Shown piece by piece: positions 5,982 through 64,000 of a stretch of DNA of 64,000 nucleotides. The notes under the pieces are model-generated. The model was not told where the DNA came from and did no database searches. It saw nothing but the letters and a program-made list of their open reading frames with translations. This DNA comes from Candidatus Uhrbacteria bacterium. Its GTDB lineage: Bacteria; Patescibacteriota; Patescibacteriia; UBA9934; GWF2-40-263. Numbering within the stretch: position 1 is the first letter of the stretch; every line of letters begins with the position of its first letter. The translations under genes were made by a program, and so were the position numbers. The stretch is taken from NCBI GenBank assembly GCA_014239775.1, contig JAAZYG010000005.1, positions 6,746 to 70,745 of the forward strand. The letters run 5' to 3'.

Positions 5982-6057
5982 TGGAGCCGTCACGCGGATT
6001 CGAACCGCGGACCTCATCCTTACCATGGATGCGCTCTACCTACTGAGCTATGACGGC
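5982..6057 (-). tRNA. tRNA-Thr (anticodon GGU), CCA encoded
   Basis: Reverse complement GCCGTCATAGCTCAGTAGGTAGAGCGCATCCATGGTAAGGATGAGGTCCGCGGTTCGAATCCGCGTGACGGCTCCA. Anticodon loop is ATGGTAA. Confidence 0.9.
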
Positions 6058-12922: not shown

Positions 12923-13038
12923 ACTAGCATAGTATATCACACTTTATAATCTAAAACATTCATTACTTCTTGGTTATAATACATATGTATATATTACGAT
13001 TCGATCTTATTTGTCATAAATAACCAACAATTCTAATC

Positions 13039-13072
13039 ATCTTTATTTAGCTGAACTTAGCTAAATAAAGAT
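13039..13072. promoter_or_regulatory. perfect 13-bp inverted repeat just upstream of the island promoter (operator candidate)
   Basis: ATCTTTATTTAGC (13039-13051), 8-nt spacer, GCTAAATAAAGAT (13060-13072). It ends 18 nt before the -35 hexamer. No flanking T-run, so it is not a terminator. Confidence 0.4.
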
Positions 13073-13090
13073 ATTTCTAAATTGTAGGTC

Positions 13091-13119
13091 TTGACAAAAC
13101 TGACAAAAACTGTTATTAT
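13091..13119 (+). promoter_or_regulatory. sigma70-like promoter candidate of the 13-15 kb island
   Basis: TTGACA (13091-13096), 17-nt spacer, TATTAT (13114-13119). Confidence 0.5.
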
Positions 13120-13599
13120 TGTCATGTTGATAATCGGCATGTAAATCATTTATTTGAAAATGCCATACAATTGAATACTGGGGAGAGACCAGTGCTATCT
13201 GTGATTGTACAGATGCTCAATCATATAAAATCGATTTTTGTATGTGTCTTTACCTTGATACATTCAACAATCGGTTTTTTATTAATTAAGATTACGGAGG
13301 AGAGAGTGTACCCGTCCCTTCAAATCCGAAAGGAAGAGATGGGCGGTGGATACCAAATGGAATAACTGGGTTTACTCACTTAATCCATACGCAAGGAATC
13401 CGTTATTCATACCAACTCTTGAGTAGGTCACTGAATTTTTTCCCTCCGTGTTCTGAGTTAATAAAACCAAAAAAACTCTATTTATCTACTGTAGATAAAT
13501 ACTTTAACAAGGCAAGCGAACCAATTGAGATGCTTTGAGCTCTTGGTGACCGCATTGATGTGCATATTGACACATCTAGTCTTTTTCTCAGAGCGCTCC

Positions 13600-13637
13600 C
13601 CCTGATGGATGGGTATTTATATACCCATCCATCAGGG
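13600..13637 (+). other. 17-bp perfect hairpin
   Basis: CCCTGATGGATGGGTAT, loop TTAT, ATACCCATCCATCAGGG. Preceded by the 8-nt palindrome GAGCGCTC (13591-13598). Confidence 0.8.
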
Positions 13638-13664
13638 CCATTATTAATTTAACACAACCCCTTG

Positions 13665-13707
13665 CCCGATCGTAATCTTATTTACAAATAAGACATCTAC
13701 GATCGGG
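13665..13707 (+). other. long composite hairpin
   Basis: Outer 10 bp CCCGATCGTA / TACGATCGGG enclosing inner TCTTATT / AATAAGA. Followed by TTTC. Confidence 0.75.
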
Positions 13708-13763
13708 TTTCTGTCATAATACGCAATTTATTTGTGTGTTATGAAGGAAATCACATAAAAATA

Positions 13764-13826
13764 ATCTGATCTGGAATGAAGTAAATTATCAACTACTTCC
13801 TTCCAGATCAGATCCCCATGGTGGGG
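13764..13826 (+). other. long hairpin plus adjacent short GC hairpin
   Basis: 13-bp perfect ATCTGATCTGGAA / TTCCAGATCAGAT with inner GAAGTA / TACTTC, then CCCCA-TGG-TGGGG (13814-13826). Confidence 0.75.
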
Positions 13827-13887
13827 CTTTGAAAAGGACAGCACTGTGCAAATAAGCACAACACCATCTCAGAAAAGGAGAATTTTA

Positions 13888-15123
13888 ATGCTGCAAAACA
13901 TTTTTGAACCCCCCACCCTCATGGGAATGCAATTTTGTATTCCTGAAAACGACTCGCGTCCGGGCCTGCCGGGCAAGATCGAGGTTCTAGGTCGCAAGGC
14001 CCAGAAGTACTTCACAGGAAAGATAAACTTCCAAGAAAGCCATTTCAACAAAGGTGTTGCCGTCAGTCTGTGCATTCAGGCTGGTCAGGACTGGACCAAG
14101 TTGGGAAGCATTTCTGCGCTGAAAAAGCGTGGTAATGAGCTCCGGCTGATCTCTGAAGCCAGCGTGATTGCTGCTTCTACTGGTCTTCCGGTTGAATGGC
14201 TCGTTAAAGGAACTGAGTCTGTCGAAGGACTGCGAATGATCAAAAAGGCGGTTGAACTCGCTCGAAAGGTCAATCGTAATCACATGTTCTGGAGCAGTGT
14301 AATGACTCCCAGTCAAGTGATTGACCAGGAAATGAACGTCCTTTTGGCTCTGGAAGATGCCCTTATCACCGCACTCAAGACTAACCCCAAGAGTGATGAT
14401 GAGAAGGAAGATCTCAAGCAGAGTACAACGACTGTTGATCTGCGTGACATGGATATGGAGGCTTTCATCGAAGGTCTAGTTCCTGTACCTTCAGAACTTC
14501 CGAAGTTGCCTAGTACCAGGTCTGAATCCGACACCAAAGTCAAGGCAAAAACCTGTACTGACAACAATTGTGTGATCGTGAAGCGGATTGAACTGCATGA
14601 ACCTGGAACCTTGGTGGTTATTAATAACGAACTTCGTTATGTTTGCTGCGGCAAGCATGGCAAATGCCGTTCTTTGATGACACCTGAGGTCGCAAGAGTG
14701 ACTGCAGATGAAAGTAGGCTTCGACGTCAGTACCGGATCCCTGCTTGGAAGCAGATTGTGACTGAAGACTTTCAGTCTGATCGCCACACGGTCTACTGTC
14801 CGAGTTGTTCAAAATTCATCCTCAAGGATGGGTCAAAGACACTCGCACAATGGATCACTTCTGCTGAAGAGACTGAGAGAGATCTTTCTCGAAATGGTAG
14901 GCAAATCGCACGTAGCTTGGGATACAACAATCCCTTGAACAACGACGCCTACCTTGAGCTGGCATTGGCAGAGCCAGGACTGCGTGCTAACGGAATCGTT
15001 GGCCCCAATAAGACCCGAAAAGGTCCAATGGGAATTCGCGCAGCCTTGGCAATCTCCAAGACCAACCCGAATCGTCGTAACGGCAAAAACCGTAGCAACA
15101 ATCGGAATGCTCAACGCTCCTAA
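13888..15123 (+). CDS. orphan 411-aa protein: unassigned N-domain, acidic linker, Cys-rich zinc-ribbon-like region, Arg/Asn/Lys-rich C-terminal tail
   Basis: RBS AAGGAG (13875-13880) sits 7 nt before ATG 13888 (the track starts at GTG 13846). Cysteine clusters CTDNNC ... CCGKHGKC ... CPSC. Tail KTRKGPMG...NPNRRNGKNRSNNRNAQRS. Counted rows are 47-55% G+C versus 32-37% in flanking genes. The many antisense ORFs are typical of GC-rich coding DNA. Confidence 0.7.
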   Translation: MLQNIFEPPTLMGMQFCIPENDSRPGLPGKIEVLGRKAQKYFTGKINFQESHFNKGVAVSLCIQAGQDWTKLGSISALKKRGNELRLISEASVIAASTGLPVEWLVKGTESVEGLRMIKKAVELARKVNRNHMFWSSVMTPSQVIDQEMNVLLALEDALITALKTNPKSDDEKEDLKQSTTTVDLRDMDMEAFIEGLVPVPSELPKLPSTRSESDTKVKAKTCTDNNCVIVKRIELHEPGTLVVINNELRYVCCGKHGKCRSLMTPEVARVTADESRLRRQYRIPAWKQIVTEDFQSDRHTVYCPSCSKFILKDGSKTLAQWITSAEETERDLSRNGRQIARSLGYNNPLNNDAYLELALAEPGLRANGIVGPNKTRKGPMGIRAALAISKTNPNRRNGKNRSNNRNAQRS

Positions 15124-15228
15124 AAAGAGCACTTGTTAATCAATAAAACGATTAACACTTGGGGAACGTAGAAACACTCTTTCTGCGTTCCCCACTCATT
15201 AAAGGTCATAAGACAACTTGTGCTCTTT
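15124..15228 (+). other. structured 3' element (three-way-junction-like) directly after the stop codon
   Basis: Closing helix AAAGAGCAC (15124-15132) / GTGCTCTTT (15220-15228) encloses hairpin GTTAATC / GATTAAC (15135-15157) and the 14-bp hairpin GGGGAACGTAGAAA / TTTCTGCGTTCCCC (15161-15193). Confidence 0.5.
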
Positions 15229-15259
15229 AATGGGTATAGAATTCTCTCCCCAAGAGACC

Positions 15260-15289
15260 AAAATAACATCCTAATAAGGATGTTATTTT
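15260..15289 (+). terminator. intrinsic terminator of the orphan-gene transcript
   Basis: Perfect 12-bp stem AAAATAACATCC / GGATGTTATTTT, loop TAATAA. Confidence 0.65.
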
Positions 15290-15297
15290 GATATAAA

Positions 15298-15323
15298 AAG
15301 AACCCGGAAAAAACCGAGTTCTT
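15298..15323 (+). other. second hairpin after the terminator
   Basis: AAGAACCCGG, A6 loop, CCGAGTTCTT (one mismatch). Confidence 0.5.
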
Positions 15324-15476
15324 CTACTGGCACGACAAACGCACCCTCTCTCTTCATATCTACTTATGTAGACAAAAAACATTAACACATACACAAACTT
15401 TGTCAAGTATCTTAAACAAAGACAATAAAGATAACTAATAATCTCTATAAAAAAAGGCTTTTTATGTTTAAATTAC

Positions 15477-15505
15477 TTGACAAATATCATATTTTTTGTT
15501 AATCT
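15477..15505 (+). promoter_or_regulatory. sigma70-like promoter candidate for the small ORF
   Basis: TTGACA (15477-15482), 17-nt spacer, TAATCT (15500-15505). Confidence 0.4.
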
Positions 15506-15609
15506 AATCTTACAATTCAATCATGTCTATAAAAATAGATATACTACAACTGACTAGAGTGTGTGTTATGTAAATACAAAACCTCACTCTTTAGTATAGA
15601 GGAGGCAAA

Positions 15610-15762
15610 ATGCCTGGAAAGATAGAGGGAAATAAAGCAAACACGCTTAAACAGACGTGTATTACTAGAACTGCACTAAACTTCTGTAATTTTCGTCAAA
15701 CTGACATAAGTCGTAATCCACGACGTTTTCAACCTTGTTACATTTGTCCAGGCGGTGGTTAG
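15610..15762 (+). CDS. 50-aa four-cysteine small protein (hypothetical)
   Basis: Strong RBS AGAGGAGG 6 nt before the ATG. Sequence MPGKIEGNKANTLKQTCITRTALNFCNFRQTDISRNPRRFQPCYICPGGG. It has its own promoter candidate and a terminator. Below the ORF-track cutoff. Confidence 0.5.
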   Translation: MPGKIEGNKANTLKQTCITRTALNFCNFRQTDISRNPRRFQPCYICPGGG

Positions 15763-15802
15763 CTACTTTAACCAAACCTGTCGACTAAAAGTCATCTTAT
15801 CT

Positions 15803-15828
15803 ACGGCCACTAACTCACGGCCGTTTTA
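15803..15828. terminator. hairpin terminator between convergent small ORF and trmB-like gene
   Basis: ACGGCC / GGCCGT stem, 10-nt loop, followed by TTTT. Confidence 0.55.
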
Positions 15829-15830
15829 TG

Positions 15831-16607
15831 TTACTCAAATTTTTGTTTCTTATAATTTTCAGCACCTCTCCATGCTAATTCAAACAAAGCTTTTACAGTA
15901 TCTGCAATTTCCTTACTGGTAATGACCACTGACAAAATAGCTGATTTATATGAAAATAAAAATATATGATTATCTCTCACAACAATACTTCCATGAATCG
16001 GAAACTCACTTGCAGGTATAATTCGTATCTCCCCTTTTCCCATGTGAGGTAATGATACATCTGATTCATCTTCAACAATTGCAAGAACCCTGTGTTCAGT
16101 ATCGCTAGTTCTTAAAGTTGCATGGTGAGCATCTCTGTCGTGCATTACTTCAATTGTATTTTGAACATCCTCAAAAGGAAATATTTCAAAAAATTCACCA
16201 TCTAATTTTTCAAACATTGAACGAACTGTCTTAATCCCTTCAATTCCTTCAAGATATCTGATTTGCGGCTTTGTACCTTCTGCATTAAAAAGAGCCATTA
16301 ACATTGGTAATGTTTTATCTAACTCTGCTCTTTTTTCTGCTATCGCCCTATTTTGAGTATCTAAAATTGCACCAAGTCTTTCTGGAGACTCAGCTGCATA
16401 AAAACGCTTCTTACCTTTTACAAAAGTTGACATAAGACCACGTCCTGACAAAGATTCTATCATGACGTAAGTAGTTGCTCTGTTTACTTTTGATTTATGT
16501 GATATGTCTTGAACAGGTGAAGGACCCAACTCTAAAGCCGCCAGGTACACTGACGCCTCTTTATCAGAGAGTCCTAAATGTTTTAATTCATTGATTAGCT
16601 CATCCAT
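15831..16607 (-). CDS. TrmB-family transcriptional regulator
   Basis: N-terminal winged HTH LGLSDKEASVYLAALELGPSPVQDISHKSKVNRATTYVMIESL. TrmB-like C-domain length. Confidence 0.75.
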   Translation of the reverse strand: MDELINELKHLGLSDKEASVYLAALELGPSPVQDISHKSKVNRATTYVMIESLSGRGLMSTFVKGKKRFYAAESPERLGAILDTQNRAIAEKRAELDKTLPMLMALFNAEGTKPQIRYLEGIEGIKTVRSMFEKLDGEFFEIFPFEDVQNTIEVMHDRDAHHATLRTSDTEHRVLAIVEDESDVSLPHMGKGEIRIIPASEFPIHGSIVVRDNHIFLFSYKSAILSVVITSKEIADTVKALFELAWRGAENYKKQKFE

Positions 16608-29285: not shown

Positions 29286-29471
29286 AGTATTTTGTATATT
29301 TATCGACCTTTAAATAAAAAACTGCCGATTACATACCGCAGTGTTCTAAGAAAACTTTTCAGAATCTCATTTACCTCGACAGGACTTATTTCATTAATGA
29401 AAACCTGTTGTCTACGGCGGATATGTTCATTACTAATAGCAATGTAGCATCTCCAATCTTTAGTTCAAAAA
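29286..29471 (-). promoter_or_regulatory. long 5' leader of the rplJ-rplL operon (possible L10-leader-type autoregulatory RNA)
   Basis: ~185 nt between the promoter candidate and the rplJ ATG. L10(L12)4-binding leaders are established in other bacteria, but the motif is not verified here. Confidence 0.3.
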
Positions 29472-29501
29472 GAGTATATATAAAACATATATGATTGTCA
29501 A
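29472..29501 (-). promoter_or_regulatory. sigma70-like promoter candidate for rplJL
   Basis: On the minus strand: TTGACA (29501-29496), 17 nt, TATACT (29477-29472). Confidence 0.45.
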
Positions 29502-46076: not shown

Positions 46077-46098
46077 ATAAAAAAAGCCCGTTTGGGCT
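46077..46098 (-). terminator. intrinsic terminator of the 405-aa orphan gene
   Basis: AGCCC / GGGCT stem, loop GTTT, overlapping the TAG stop. U-run on the minus RNA (A-run 46077-46085). Confidence 0.65.
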
Positions 46099-47314
46099 AA
46101 AAGATTGAACAAGCGTATTTTAATTGCTTATATAACTCCTTAAGATTAAGTGAACTTTTACAAAACTCTGACTTAACAAGCACCAAACGCCCAATCACAG
46201 ACTCAAGGATTTGATGTCTGAAACCCTCATCAAGACGCTGTCCTGTAAACACATCTGCTCGAGTCAATACATCATACACACCAACAAGACGTTTATGTAT
46301 AAATTCAATTCTTTGACTTGAAATAACTTGTTTTTGATTTTGATACCATGCAACAATCAATAAAATTTCCTCAAGAACCCAATGTTGTTGAAGTAAAATC
46401 ATAGATCTATATACTCGCCTCAAAGCATCGCCAGCAGACGTCATCATTGATGCGTTCAATTGATCAGCAGCACTCGACATTAAATGCGATGCTTCCTGCA
46501 AATCCAACACAACATAACTCAAAGAACGTTTAAATGGTCGTATAGAAATCTGATGCACCTCATTAGAATAACAATCAATATTTTCTACAGCCTTGCGCAC
46601 CAAACTATTAGTTCTTGAGTGACCAAATAGTTCATTCGAGTTCAATAATTCCATGACATATGAGCGTATACTAATGCATTTTTCATGTAATTGAGCAAGA
46701 TAAACCTCCAAAACGACTGCCCTGTGCTCCATTATTCTTCCAACACCACGCAGACTATGAATGGCCTGTAAATATTCACGTGATCTTTTTAAAATTTTAG
46801 GACCAATCTCTCTACCAGATACTGAGCTGTTATGTACAACTAAATCTAAATCTAGTTGTACTGGATACCAAATAAAACCCACACCATCTTCGGAACACAC
46901 ATTAGATAAAATCCAGGACATATTTTCTAAATCAAAATTAGATCCTGATAAATGCTTTACTTCATGATGAGACAACAAATGATATTTCGGATTAATACGA
47001 CTATATGCTCGTCTTAAATCATTTATTGATCTAAACTGTTGAAAAACATGATCTTGCCTTAATGCTAAATTCTGTTTAACCCTTGCGGTTAGCCCCATGT
47101 TCCTACTTAAAATATGACCAACAAACACACCACCAACATTCTCTCTTGCAACATACAAAGTGTTATTAACGAGAATTTCAAGTTTAATATTTTCTATTAA
47201 AGCAGGTTCTTTTTTATTAGAACCTTTAGCTGATGCCATTATCGTTAAATCACGACGTATAATTACCGGATTGCTTAAATTAGGCCAAACAACCCTAGGT
47301 TCACTTTTTGTCAA
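46097..47314 (-). CDS. orphan 405-aa predicted helical protein, TTG start
   Basis: RBS GGAGGTG (47328-47322) upstream of TTG 47314. It has its own promoter candidate, a 5'-UTR hairpin (47335-47357) and a terminator. One counted row is 45% G+C. No motif recognised. Confidence 0.6.
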   Translation of the reverse strand: MTKSEPRVVWPNLSNPVIIRRDLTIMASAKGSNKKEPALIENIKLEILVNNTLYVARENVGGVFVGHILSRNMGLTARVKQNLALRQDHVFQQFRSINDLRRAYSRINPKYHLLSHHEVKHLSGSNFDLENMSWILSNVCSEDGVGFIWYPVQLDLDLVVHNSSVSGREIGPKILKRSREYLQAIHSLRGVGRIMEHRAVVLEVYLAQLHEKCISIRSYVMELLNSNELFGHSRTNSLVRKAVENIDCYSNEVHQISIRPFKRSLSYVVLDLQEASHLMSSAADQLNASMMTSAGDALRRVYRSMILLQQHWVLEEILLIVAWYQNQKQVISSQRIEFIHKRLVGVYDVLTRADVFTGQRLDEGFRHQILESVIGRLVLVKSEFCKSSLNLKELYKQLKYACSIF

Positions 47315-61388: not shown

Positions 61389-62453
61389 ATGGATCTACAA
61401 AAACAAATCGAAAATTATCAAAATAAAGTAAAGGAGCTTGAATCTAAACTTACAGATGCAAGCGTTCTTTCTGATACAAAAAAATTAAGGGAAATTACCG
61501 CAGAATACAATAATGGAAAAATAATTTTAGAAATCGGTAACAGATACACAAAGACAGTGTCGGATCTTAAAAGTGCAGAATCTGCCCTTGCTGAAACAAT
61601 GGATGAGGAAATGAAGGAACTGGCACATGAAGAAATAAATGAATTAAGTACAAACTTACCCATAATAGAGAAAGAGCTACTTCTTGCACTTATACCAGCA
61701 GATCCAATGGATAAGAAAAATATTATTATAGAAATTCGTGCAGGTGCCGGTGGAGATGAGGCTTCGTTGTTCGCAGGAGAACTAATGAGAATGTACACAC
61801 GTTATGCTGAAGTTAATAATTGGAAGACAGAGCTTATTTCAGCAAACAGAAACGAAATAGGAGGTTTTAAAGAAACAAGCTTTTCAATTAAAGGAAGTAA
61901 CGTGTTTAGTAAACTAAAGTATGAAAGTGGTGTACACAGAGTGCAGCGTGTACCTGAAACCGAAAAACAAGGACGAGTACATACATCAACAGCAACTGTG
62001 GCAGTATTACCAGAAGCAGAAGAGGTAGATGTAAAAATAAGCCCTGGTGATCTAAAAATTGAGGCAACAACATCCACTGGAGCAGGTGGTCAAAGTGTAA
62101 ACACAACATACTCAGCCGTAAGAATAACCCATTTACCAACAGGTCTTATGGTGTACTGCCAAGAAGAACGATCTCAAAAACAAAACAAAGAAAGAGCGTT
62201 ATCAATAATACGTGCACGTGTATATGCGATGGAACAAGAAAAAGCTCAAAAAGAAAGAGCAGATGCAAGACGTGGTCAGATAGGAACAGGTGATAGATCA
62301 GAAAAAATAAGAACTTATAATTTTCCACAAGACAGAATCACAGACCACAGAATCAAACAAAACTTTCATGACATTCCATCTGTCATGGATGGTGGTATGG
62401 ATACGATAATTAAATCCATGAAAGAAGCTGAATTAGTTAAACAATTATCTTAA
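61389..62453 (+). CDS. prfA: peptide chain release factor 1
   Basis: GGQ motif (GAGGQSVNTT). RF1-type tripeptide region RVPETEKQGRVHTS (PxT, x=E). Confidence 0.9.
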   Translation: MDLQKQIENYQNKVKELESKLTDASVLSDTKKLREITAEYNNGKIILEIGNRYTKTVSDLKSAESALAETMDEEMKELAHEEINELSTNLPIIEKELLLALIPADPMDKKNIIIEIRAGAGGDEASLFAGELMRMYTRYAEVNNWKTELISANRNEIGGFKETSFSIKGSNVFSKLKYESGVHRVQRVPETEKQGRVHTSTATVAVLPEAEEVDVKISPGDLKIEATTSTGAGGQSVNTTYSAVRITHLPTGLMVYCQEERSQKQNKERALSIIRARVYAMEQEKAQKERADARRGQIGTGDRSEKIRTYNFPQDRITDHRIKQNFHDIPSVMDGGMDTIIKSMKEAELVKQLS

Positions 62454-62475
62454 ATACTCAATATATAATCATTGA

Positions 62476-62507
62476 CAAAAAACCATACAAACTGTATGGT
62501 TTTTTTA
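62476..62507 (+). terminator. intrinsic terminator of prfA
   Basis: AAAAAACCATACA, loop AAC, TGTATGGTTTTTTT. Confidence 0.8.
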
Positions 62508-62538
62508 CTCCTAGTAATACTTAATACTAGAAGCTTTT

Positions 62539-62687
62539 GCCTGAGTGAGGGTTGTATTATTAGCCTGGAACAATTAACACACCTCCCTCCTTCTATGCAT
62601 GCTCGTATGAACATGTGTAGTGTTAAATGTTTTAATGATACAACCCTCGCTAGGCCTTTAAAGAATCTGACAAGGTTCTTTTTTTTT
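62539..62687 (+). ncRNA. candidate ~150-180-nt structured small RNA ending in an intrinsic terminator
   Basis: 11-bp helix GAGGGTTGTAT (62547-62557) / ATACAACCCTC (62638-62648), extended by GCC/GGC. Inner helix TTAACAC (62574-62580) / GTGTTAA (62620-62626). Unpaired CCTCCCTCCTT (62582-62592). Terminator AAGAATC / GGTTCTT plus a T-run (62661-62687). The overlapping ORFs on both strands look spurious. Confidence 0.35.
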
Positions 62688-62764
62688 AAAGTTATGCACA
62701 AATTTAGTGTACACATCTGTGGACAACCTAAAGAAAATAACAAAAATCCAAGTAATATGTACTG

Positions 62765-62793
62765 TTGACATGTATGTATGATACTGATATTCT
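62765..62793 (+). promoter_or_regulatory. sigma70-like promoter candidate with extended -10
   Basis: TTGACA (62765-62770), 17 nt, TATTCT (62788-62793), preceded by TGa. Confidence 0.45.
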
Positions 62794-62799
62794 AGTTTT

Positions 62800-64000
62800 T
62801 ACCCAGTCGTGAAATAAACAACCAACCTACAATGCCTTGGCAAAGTAATTAGGGAGTAAATTAATCGACAGTTAGAAGATAATCAAAATATTTAATGTGC
62901 TCGCTTGCGGGTCATAAAATAAAAATTTTCTTCTAATGGTAGATACGGTTATTTAAAATGATCAACTAAAACCACAATTTAAGGATTGGTTTAACAACTT
63001 TCATCCATAAATTGAAAAGTATTTTCGTCATTAAATGTTTGTGTGCGATCTCAGGATTACATCCAACGATCTGTGGCATAATGAAAATACGGTAAGTCAT
63101 TGAGATTTTTAAATAATTGAATCAAAATCAACTGAAGGTTTAGGTATGAAGCTTGTTGCTTTCTAGGATTGATAAACAACTCACGAAGTTTTTCTCCCCT
63201 ACAGCACAGCCATTGCCACTAGATTGTAAAGTACTCTGAATGGTTCCATGGAATCACAAAGACCGCTTCAACAGCTAGTTAGTTATTAGTAATCAAAACT
63301 CTTAGGCAACTAGGAGACTACTGAAACTGAATCCACGGACGTTTAAAGGTCACCATACCCTCAAACAACCAATGATTTAGCGGAACTATTAATTTGAATA
63401 CTAATGACTTTGAGTGGACCATGGTGGAACACTTTAAACTGAAAGTTGATTTGTGAAATTGGTGGCAACACTTATTTCACACGTTCCTCCTATGTAAACT
63501 TTAGCAATTAAGAATCAATCTGAATTGAGTATTATCCATTTTCAACATCTGGAAACATACAAAAGACAGATAGGTAAATTGATTTGCTTTGCACACATCA
63601 GTGGCAACACTTGATAATACAACGCTTTTTAAGCAGTATGTGCATATAAAAGTTTGCGGGTTTTCAAACAACTGAAGAGTTTGTGTGGAAATGACATGAA
63701 ATACTGTCACTTCCCTAGATTACGCATTCGCGTTTTGTCATCATTGCAACTTGAGTGTCACAACAAAAGTAGCAAGACTGCACAAAGTAAAAAATGAGCA
63801 ATCAAGAAAACACAAGCTTAACAGTGAGAGGATGGATTTCACTCCTGAATCTCGTGTGATGAAAAAATGAAGGCAGTTGGATGAAGATCTGATAGTAAAG
63901 AATTTATTCTAGGATAAATCCTAACTAACAGATCTGATTCCTCTGCTGACATTGGAACAACTCTTAGAGCTCTCAGCTTGCTGTGAGCTCTTTTTCTTTT
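62800..64000 (+). ncRNA. ~1.2-kb ORF-free transcription unit (candidate long noncoding RNA, or decayed/unknown region)
   Basis: No plus-strand ORF of 60 aa or more, and only one junk-like minus ORF. Bounded by a promoter candidate and a terminator. Two hairpins display the same GTGGCAACAC loop (63463-63472, 63601-63610), with a complementary TTGCCACT at 63213-63220. Confidence 0.3.
63966..64000 (+). terminator. intrinsic terminator at the window edge
   Basis: AGAGCTC-T-CAG, loop CTTG, CTG-T-GAGCTCT, followed by TTTTCTTTT. Confidence 0.65.

Follow-up and report, generated by a model that had tools for sequence, protein, structure and literature searches.

A predicted structured small RNA with an invariant C/U-rich loop downstream of prfA in Candidatus Uhrbacteria

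The prfA-prmC locus

The DNA under study is a stretch of 64,000 nucleotides from a Candidatus Uhrbacteria bacterium (hereafter the window), which is densely coding and has a G+C content of ~34%. Candidatus Uhrbacteria and Patescibacteria are the nearest named relatives of its release factor RF1 in a protein search. The gene order is queA (- strand), rpmE (+) and prfA (+), the last of which encodes RF1 and occupies positions 61389-62453 of the + strand. In relatives, rpmE, prfA and prmC form a + strand island amid - strand genes. By homology with the related contig L161, prmC starts ~28 nt past the end of the window, so that the element described here (62507-62687, + strand) stands at the beginning of a gene-free gap of 1.57 kb between prfA and prmC. 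An earlier note, made from the letters of the sequence, had pointed to a candidate small RNA at this place, and all sequence features named in it are found at their positions.

Two contigs, L161 and L162, were retrieved in the protein search through RF1 proteins with 95% and 90% identity to that of the window. L161 is 98% identical to the window at the nucleotide level over 62300-64000, L162 ~77% over 62300-62822 and 63649-64000, and the element is present in both. RF1-guided scans of genome contigs and metagenome contigs reached best RF1 identities of 62% and 58%, respectively, and are therefore of no use for intergenic comparison.

Above the gathering threshold, the matches of Rfam 15 in the whole window are confined to an L10 leader and three tRNAs (29306-29435, 1749-1932 and 5985-6057, - strand). 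The Rfam search suggested in the earlier note matched no family on the element, either at the gathering threshold (whole window) or at E<=10 (62300-64000), where only chance-level matches to miRNA, snoRNA and SECIS models occur. RsaE/RoxS-type and csRNA families are absent among the matches at E<=10, and the corresponding regions of the relatives are likewise without an Rfam match.

Elsewhere in the window, an island at 12940-15831 is poorly coding and possesses several TTGACA promoters, two strong hairpins (13600-13637 and 13764-13813) and a 425-aa ORF (13846-15123) without Pfam match, the G+C content of which is ~48% in a genome of 34% G+C. A 54-codon Cys-rich ORF of the same island, near 15611-15775, bears one of the few strong Shine-Dalgarno (SD) sequences (GGAGG). 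The island is possibly acquired DNA.

Promoter and terminators

The candidate promoter (62472-62500, + strand) consists of a -35 element TTGACA (62472-62477), a spacer of 17 nt and a -10 element TATGGT (62495-62500), and was found by the promoter scan with 10 of 12 matches. It is embedded in the prfA terminator, with a predicted start near A62507, and the arrangement TTGACA-17-TATGGT is identical in L161 and L162; a promoter overlapping the prfA terminator, as the earlier note had it, is plausible and conserved. TTGACA is present 33 times in the window, 12 times in intergenic regions, though these make up 11% of the bases, and nine of the 12 intergenic copies are followed by TAnnnT at 17 nt. 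One of these nine is the promoter of the L10 leader (TTGACA-17-TATACT at 29496). The predicted promoter at 62472 fits this intergenic TTGACA-17-TAnnnT pattern of the genome.

The prfA terminator (T1, 62477-62506, + strand) is a 13-nt perfect inverted repeat with arms 62477-62489 and 62493-62505, arranged as A6-stem-U7, and folds with -13.0 kcal/mol (62477-62505 plus U7; z -4.6). The terminator predicted for the small RNA (T2, 62660-62687, + strand) has a 9-bp stem (62660-62668/62673-62681) and a U-tract (62679-62687), and folds with -8.1 kcal/mol (62660-62681 plus U9; z -2.0). T1 and T2 are both kept in L162, in which T2 consists of a perfect stem with U-tract, and both are bidirectional in form (A-run, stem, U-run). 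Neither was called by the terminator scan, which requires at least three G-C pairs, because each stem possesses fewer than three. The earlier note had described two strong intrinsic terminators; both are present and conserved, but "strong" is too generous for T2. With these predicted signals at either end, the RNA probably starts near A62507, ends at U62687 and is transcribed on its own, which we state with moderate confidence.

L164 and L169 encode RF1 proteins 75% and 73% identical to that of the window, and their DNA is unalignable with it. In both contigs TTGACA is located just before the prfA terminator, and TAGTGT follows at 18 and 17 nt, respectively, from the descending arm of a different stem. 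In L164 the unit behind this promoter is ORF-free, ~180 nt long and built like the element of the window, with a small hairpin at the 5' end, then a long one of very high stability, and finally a terminator (z -7.0).

Coding potential of the overlapping ORFs

Two ORFs span the element, one of 98 aa on the + strand (62472-62765) and one of 97 aa on the - strand (62453-62743), and both run through both terminators. Compared with L162, the + strand ORF shows 44 non-synonymous and 6 synonymous differences, with 2 stops in L162, and the - strand ORF 42 non-synonymous and 7 synonymous differences, with 3 stops, versus 35 non-synonymous and 83 synonymous differences in prfA as the control. Besides these stops, a 1-nt deletion in L162 causes a frameshift, so that both spanning ORFs are interrupted, and neither has a Pfam match. 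The earlier note had regarded the overlapping ORFs as spurious, a view that the frameshift, the stops and the substitution ratios bear out.

A small protein gene at this place, either one of the ~97-aa ORFs or a 43-codon ORF starting at ATG 62596, could be argued from the extent of the spanning frames and from a 90-aa gene that a gene caller reports in L161. The ratios of 44:6 and 42:7, set against 35:83 in prfA, the in-frame stops and the deletion in L162, the missing Pfam matches and the course of the ORFs across two terminators all speak against it; as far as sequence can tell, the small protein gene is already refuted, and we grant it next to no probability.

Predicted fold of the RNA

The segment 62508-62690 folds with a minimum free energy of -63.8 kcal/mol, compared to -33.2 +/- 4.1 kcal/mol for dinucleotide shuffles (z -7.5), and none of 200 shuffles folds as well. 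The predicted structure begins with a small 5' hairpin (62511-62530, + strand) of the form CUAGUA-8 nt-UACUAG, the stem of which is invariant and extended in L162, while its loop differs. It is followed by the main hairpin (62539-62655, + strand), an irregular structure of 117 nt and 45 pairs that reaches -49.6 kcal/mol alone (z -7.9). The main hairpin comprises helix 1 (62539-62562/62633-62655), an inner helix 2 (62568-62580/62620-62632) containing the 7-bp motif UUAACAC/GUGUUAA, and an apical hairpin of 26 nt (62594-62619). An 11-bp perfect helix, GAGGGUUGUAU/AUACAACCCUC, lies within 19-nt arms (62544-62562/62633-62651). The long irregular hairpin with an 11-bp perfect helix and an inner 7-bp helix, as first described from the letters, folds in just this way. 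It presents a one-sided internal loop, with 13 unpaired nt in the 5' strand of the stem and none in the 3' strand.

Selection on structure

The element of L162 folds like that of the window (z -7.9). Three homologues are known, two of which are 98% identical, and the covariation evidence amounts to one effective comparison, that of the window with L162; in the three-way alignment, five of the 45 pairs of the main hairpin have changed on both sides and are still paired, 13 have changed on one side through G·U, and two are broken in L162. Across the alignment, 96% of the cells are paired in the count over the named structures. The five double-sided changes compare with 0-1 in controls in which the 3' partners were slid by 1-3 columns. 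The 22 substitutions that L162 shows in paired columns relative to the window break only 2 pairs. When 22 substitutions were placed randomly in the paired columns of this same comparison, with the observed transition fraction kept, 11.8 +/- 2.3 pairs broke, and not one of 50,000 trials had two or fewer broken pairs. The earlier note had asked for conservation of structure in relatives downstream of prfA, and in L161 and L162 the structure is kept.

The pairing is specific to one strand. The number of G·U pairs is 5-8 on the + strand but 0-1 on the - strand, the - strand version of the structure loses 5-9 pairs, and the minimum free energy of 62508-62690 is -53.7 kcal/mol on the - strand versus -63.8 kcal/mol on the + strand, i.e. 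~10 kcal/mol worse. Selection of this strand-specific kind therefore points to an RNA of the + strand and not to a DNA palindrome. Judged from these comparisons of sequence, the element is, with high confidence, a structured and non-coding + strand RNA under selection.

A covariance model built from the three homologues was run on 22 further loci and gave no match in any of them. As the model detects no copy in the more distant relatives, the family is very narrow, and the small RNA appears lineage-restricted, so far confined to one narrow clade.

The C/U-rich loop and the use of Shine-Dalgarno sequences

The exposed C/U-rich site (62581-62597, + strand) comprises the internal loop ACCUCCCUCCUUC (62581-62593) and overlaps an invariant block, UCCCUCCUUCUAUG (62584-62597). 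The mean unpaired probability of ACCUCCCUCCUUC is 0.95 in the window and likewise 0.95 in L162. The three homologues show no difference in the 14-nt block UCCCUCCUUCUAUG. Of the hairpin's 27 unpaired columns, 11 differ when L162 is set against the window, none of them within this block. The unpaired pyrimidine run complementary to GGAGG that had been noticed earlier corresponds to this one-sided internal loop. According to the predicted fold and the alignment, the C/U loop is accessible and selectively conserved. The seed is situated in an internal loop and not in an apical loop or at the 5' end, a position less usual for pairing sRNAs.

In sequence, UCCCUCCUUCUAUG is complementary to a strong ribosome-binding site (RBS). 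A scan of viral contigs with the seed pattern gave a single chance match, the antisense of an ordinary RBS. An SD-like core is present upstream of 9 of the 59 ORFs of the window (~15%), compared to a background of 7.6%, and rpmE, prfA and prmC are all without SD. The gene prmC looks almost leaderless, with TATACT 4 nt before its ATG (L161 2800-2840). A general anti-SD repressor is unlikely, since the genome hardly uses Shine-Dalgarno sequences, and with SD-like cores before only ~15% of the ORFs, SD-directed regulation would therefore touch few mRNAs. The translational repressor by anti-SD pairing that the earlier note had suggested is possible but weakened on this evidence; a regulator of a few SD-led mRNAs is possible. 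Within the 64-kb window, the best candidate duplexes involve the RBS region of an unannotated ORF at 46097-47314 (GGAAGGAGGUGUGG, -23.5 kcal/mol) and, as a second site, a stretch inside tpiA (-25.3 kcal/mol). The CCUCC motif found in L164 is missing from the closely related L169, so the motif is not constant throughout the locus.

The ORF-free unit downstream of the element

The element is followed by an ORF-free unit of ~1.2 kb (62765-63995, + strand). Corresponding units are present in L162 (about 1750-2990), L163 (13100-14105, 0.95 kb), L164 (1470-2359, cut) and L175 (10633-12395, 1.7 kb), and furthermore in L165/L168, and are absent in L171-L173. The sigma-70-type promoter of the unit, TTGACA-17-T(A/G)nTCTAG (window 62765-62793), is conserved in five lineages, and the unit ends in a terminator just before prmC. 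Islands of conservation inside it include 25 nt in which L163 and L175 do not differ, and 63859-64000 with 89% identity between the window and L162. The units of GC-rich relatives are T-poor and contain many hairpins of UUCG, GNRA and CUUG type. Folding z-scores are modest (-1 to -4), and no Rfam match is found in the window (62300-64000 at E<=10) or in the corresponding regions of the relatives. The unit is possibly an undescribed large non-coding RNA. Near its 3' end, the hairpin 63872-63947 (+ strand) scores 25.4 bits with SECIS_1 at E 0.035, below the gathering score of 35, and this match is probably due to chance.

Between the element and the unit promoter, ~45-70 nt upstream of the latter, lies a pair of DnaA-box-like 9-mers, TTATGCACA (62692-62700, + strand) and TTGTCCACA (62718-62726, - strand). 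A perfect TGTGGATAA is found at the equivalent place in L162, L163, L164, L165 and L175, the five lineages in which the unit promoter, ~45-55 nt beyond, is conserved as TTGACA-17-TAnTCTAG. Together with the GC-skew and the strand switch near 61 kb, the 9-mers had brought up the origin of replication (oriC) as an identity for the gene-free 1.57 kb. This was rejected: with up to one mismatch allowed, TTATNCACA shows no enrichment (three copies in 1.5 kb, and 110 copies versus 120 expected in the window), L175 possesses only one perfect box, rpmE, prfA and prmC are, in relatives, no more than a + strand island with - strand genes around it, and the region is absent in L171-L173. No cluster of boxes exists, and the pair therefore has the look of an operator rather than of oriC.

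The prfA-prmC interval in relatives

The interval between prfA and prmC is hypervariable in Uhrbacteria. In L171-L173 it is 38-199 nt long or contains an NTP-transferase gene, elsewhere it extends over 1.1-3.4 kb. Several metagenome contigs break right after prfA, and L165 and L168, which encode identical RF1, differ by an insertion. In L175, L176, L168 and L170, the promoter behind prfA drives an FG-GAP-like lipoprotein gene. In L175 and L176 the GGAGG SD of this gene is preceded by a conserved leader hairpin, CCUCCA..UGGAG.

Long hairpins occur at the equivalent position in L173 (7075-7255, z -5.6, directly before prmC), L163 (12868-12978, z -6.8), L164 (1224-1328, z -7.0) and L175 (10393-10458). 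Homology of these hairpins with that of the window was considered and rejected, as they are unalignable and have only position and architecture in common.

L163 possesses a direct repeat of 22/23 nt, TTTTCTTATTGG(G)CTGGCTTTGA, at 13016-13037 and 14109-14131, flanking the large ORF-free unit, which suggests an insertion or duplication there. Insertion with target duplication as an origin of the region was dismissed, the flanking repeat being present in L163 only, with none in L161, L162 and L175.

Interpretation

The element is a candidate for a new, narrowly distributed member of an ordinary bacterial small-RNA class. We tentatively propose that 62507-62687 (+ strand) is the gene of a trans-acting sRNA of ~180 nt with its own promoter and terminator, which would pair through its C/U loop with SD-like stretches of mRNAs; we consider this quite possible, if somewhat short of probable, and hold the mode of action with low to moderate confidence. 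Transcription would proceed from the sigma-70-type promoter TTGACA-17-TATGGT overlapping the prfA terminator, and the separate transcript would end at the second intrinsic terminator, T2. The resulting RNA would consist of the short 5' hairpin, the 117-nt irregular hairpin and the terminator hairpin, and would act in trans through the invariant C/U loop. This loop may base-pair with G-rich SD-like stretches (complement CAUAGAAGGAGGGA) in a few mRNAs and thereby block the access of ribosomes, and the long helices may confer stability or serve as a handle for a protein or RNase III.

Other readings of the same structure concern the partner of the loop and the direction in which the element acts. 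A protein-binding or decoy RNA, the C/U block and duplex of which would be recognised by a protein for sequestration or as a scaffold, is rather unlikely but deserves consideration. Candidates for its partner are proteins with a KH or S1 domain, RNase III, and a factor whose normal role is to read the 16S 3' tail. The structure, with three stacked helices and 45 pairs, is held more strictly than a plain pairing sRNA needs, an SD-poor genome offers few pairing targets, and the invariant block has a likeness to the 3' tail of the 16S RNA, which we take to read CACCUCC...UUCUA. The CACC part of this likeness is lost in L162, however, where it reads CAUUCCCUCC; no protein partner is identifiable from sequence, and no known protein-binding RNA family of Rfam matches. 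On the other hand, the element may act in cis or be orphaned, i.e. a hairpin between transcription units that serves insulation, processing or stabilisation, or the leftover leader or 3' UTR of a lost FG-GAP-like lipoprotein gene, without any regulator in trans. The hypervariability of the prfA-prmC spot agrees with this, as do the protein genes that follow the post-prfA promoter in L175, L176 and L168, the long hairpins of L163, L173 and L175, which are very stable though unalignable and occupy the equivalent place, and the bidirectional form of both flanking terminators. A relic would decay, yet here compensatory change maintains the pairing, and the loop has not varied; the unit possesses a candidate promoter and a terminator of its own, with no downstream gene to act on, and the next unit has a conserved promoter of its own. 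Maintained pairing and an invariant loop in the clade of the window argue for a present function, and we regard a cis-acting or orphaned element, too, as an improbable explanation with some weight left to it.

Much less weight falls to the remaining two readings. A selfish palindromic repeat of MITE, REP or ERIC-like type, sitting in an intergenic hot spot, is very unlikely. It would account for an imperfect intergenic palindrome of ~120 bp in a region that varies between strains and at which many metagenome contigs end, and in these respects (length, intergenic position, variable surroundings) the element is like transcribed repeats of the ERIC, REP and MITE kind. It differs from them in being single-copy in all the sequence available, occurring once in the 64-kb window and nowhere else in related loci, and in its G·U pairs on one strand and its compensatory changes, which indicate selection at the RNA level. 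Flanking direct repeats are absent, as is similarity to phage or plasmid records. A repeat of this kind would show a target-site duplication flanking terminal inverted repeats, and arms in neutral decay, whereas the arms here evolve by compensatory or wobble-compatible changes. The 6S-like RNA, raised in the earlier note and implying that RNA polymerase is sequestered, has little left to recommend it beyond its dimensions, i.e. ~180 nt, largely double-stranded, with an unpaired internal region. RF00013 does not match at E<=10, and the loop, one-sided with 13 versus 0 nt beside the 26-nt apical hairpin, does not form a central two-sided bubble. Moreover, the 5' and 3' ends are not paired with each other, the 5' end forming its own hairpin and the 3' end the terminator, and the paired body covers only 117 nt. 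We consider a 6S-like RNA highly improbable.

To return to the trans-acting sRNA, CPR/Patescibacteria possess tiny genomes and few recognisable regulators, and to our knowledge almost nothing is known of their regulatory RNAs; a search of the literature for sRNA and 6S in CPR or Uhrbacteria returned nothing relevant. A small RNA with selection at the RNA level, a defined (predicted) transcription unit and an invariant anti-SD-like loop offers a concrete and testable entry point. It raises the question of whether an SD-poor organism controls its few SD-led genes by such an RNA, or titrates with it a factor that binds the 16S tail. A bolder version, which we mention as a doubtful speculation, would have the RNA mimic the 16S 3' tail (CCUCCUUCU) in a genome that has mostly given up SD initiation, and so pick out either a few SD-led mRNAs or a 16S-tail-reading factor. 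Such an RNA would then be the first structurally supported trans-acting sRNA of CPR/Patescibacteria, placed in a non-coding island together with an ORF-free RNA of 1-1.7 kb driven by a conserved promoter. Since the family is so far limited to a single narrow clade and we only infer what it does, the finding is at present of moderate value.

Comparison with known systems

With 6S RNA (RF00013) the element shares a similar total length and a largely helical rod. 6S RNA possesses a central bubble on both strands and a stem that closes its ends, in contrast to the one-sided loop and the much shorter body found here.

Small RNAs with C-rich or UCCC seeds are known from Gram-positive bacteria and Firmicutes, in which the Rsa RNAs of S. 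aureus, the hairpins of RNAIII, and RsaE/RoxS pair with SD regions. Like these, the element would be a stand-alone gene with its own promoter (here a candidate) and intrinsic terminator, and it presents an accessible and conserved stretch of UCCC/CCUCC type complementary to GGAGG. Their motif is apical, whereas that of the element is located in the one-sided internal loop of a 117-nt hairpin, and the host of the element, unlike theirs, rarely uses SD sequences.

The cia-dependent csRNAs of streptococci are ~100-150 nt long and carry an unpaired anti-SD-like stretch between stem-loops, with a terminator at the end. They also possess an anti-AUG element at the SD-to-AUG spacing and a CiaR-type promoter. 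The unpaired anti-SD-like stretch between stem-loops and the terminator end recur in the element. It has no anti-AUG element 5' of CCUCC, and its candidate promoter is TTGACA-17-TATGGT. By analogy, the sRNAs with UCCC or C-rich seeds and the csRNAs may be taken as the nearest functional analogues of the element, a likeness in principle and not in sequence or architecture.
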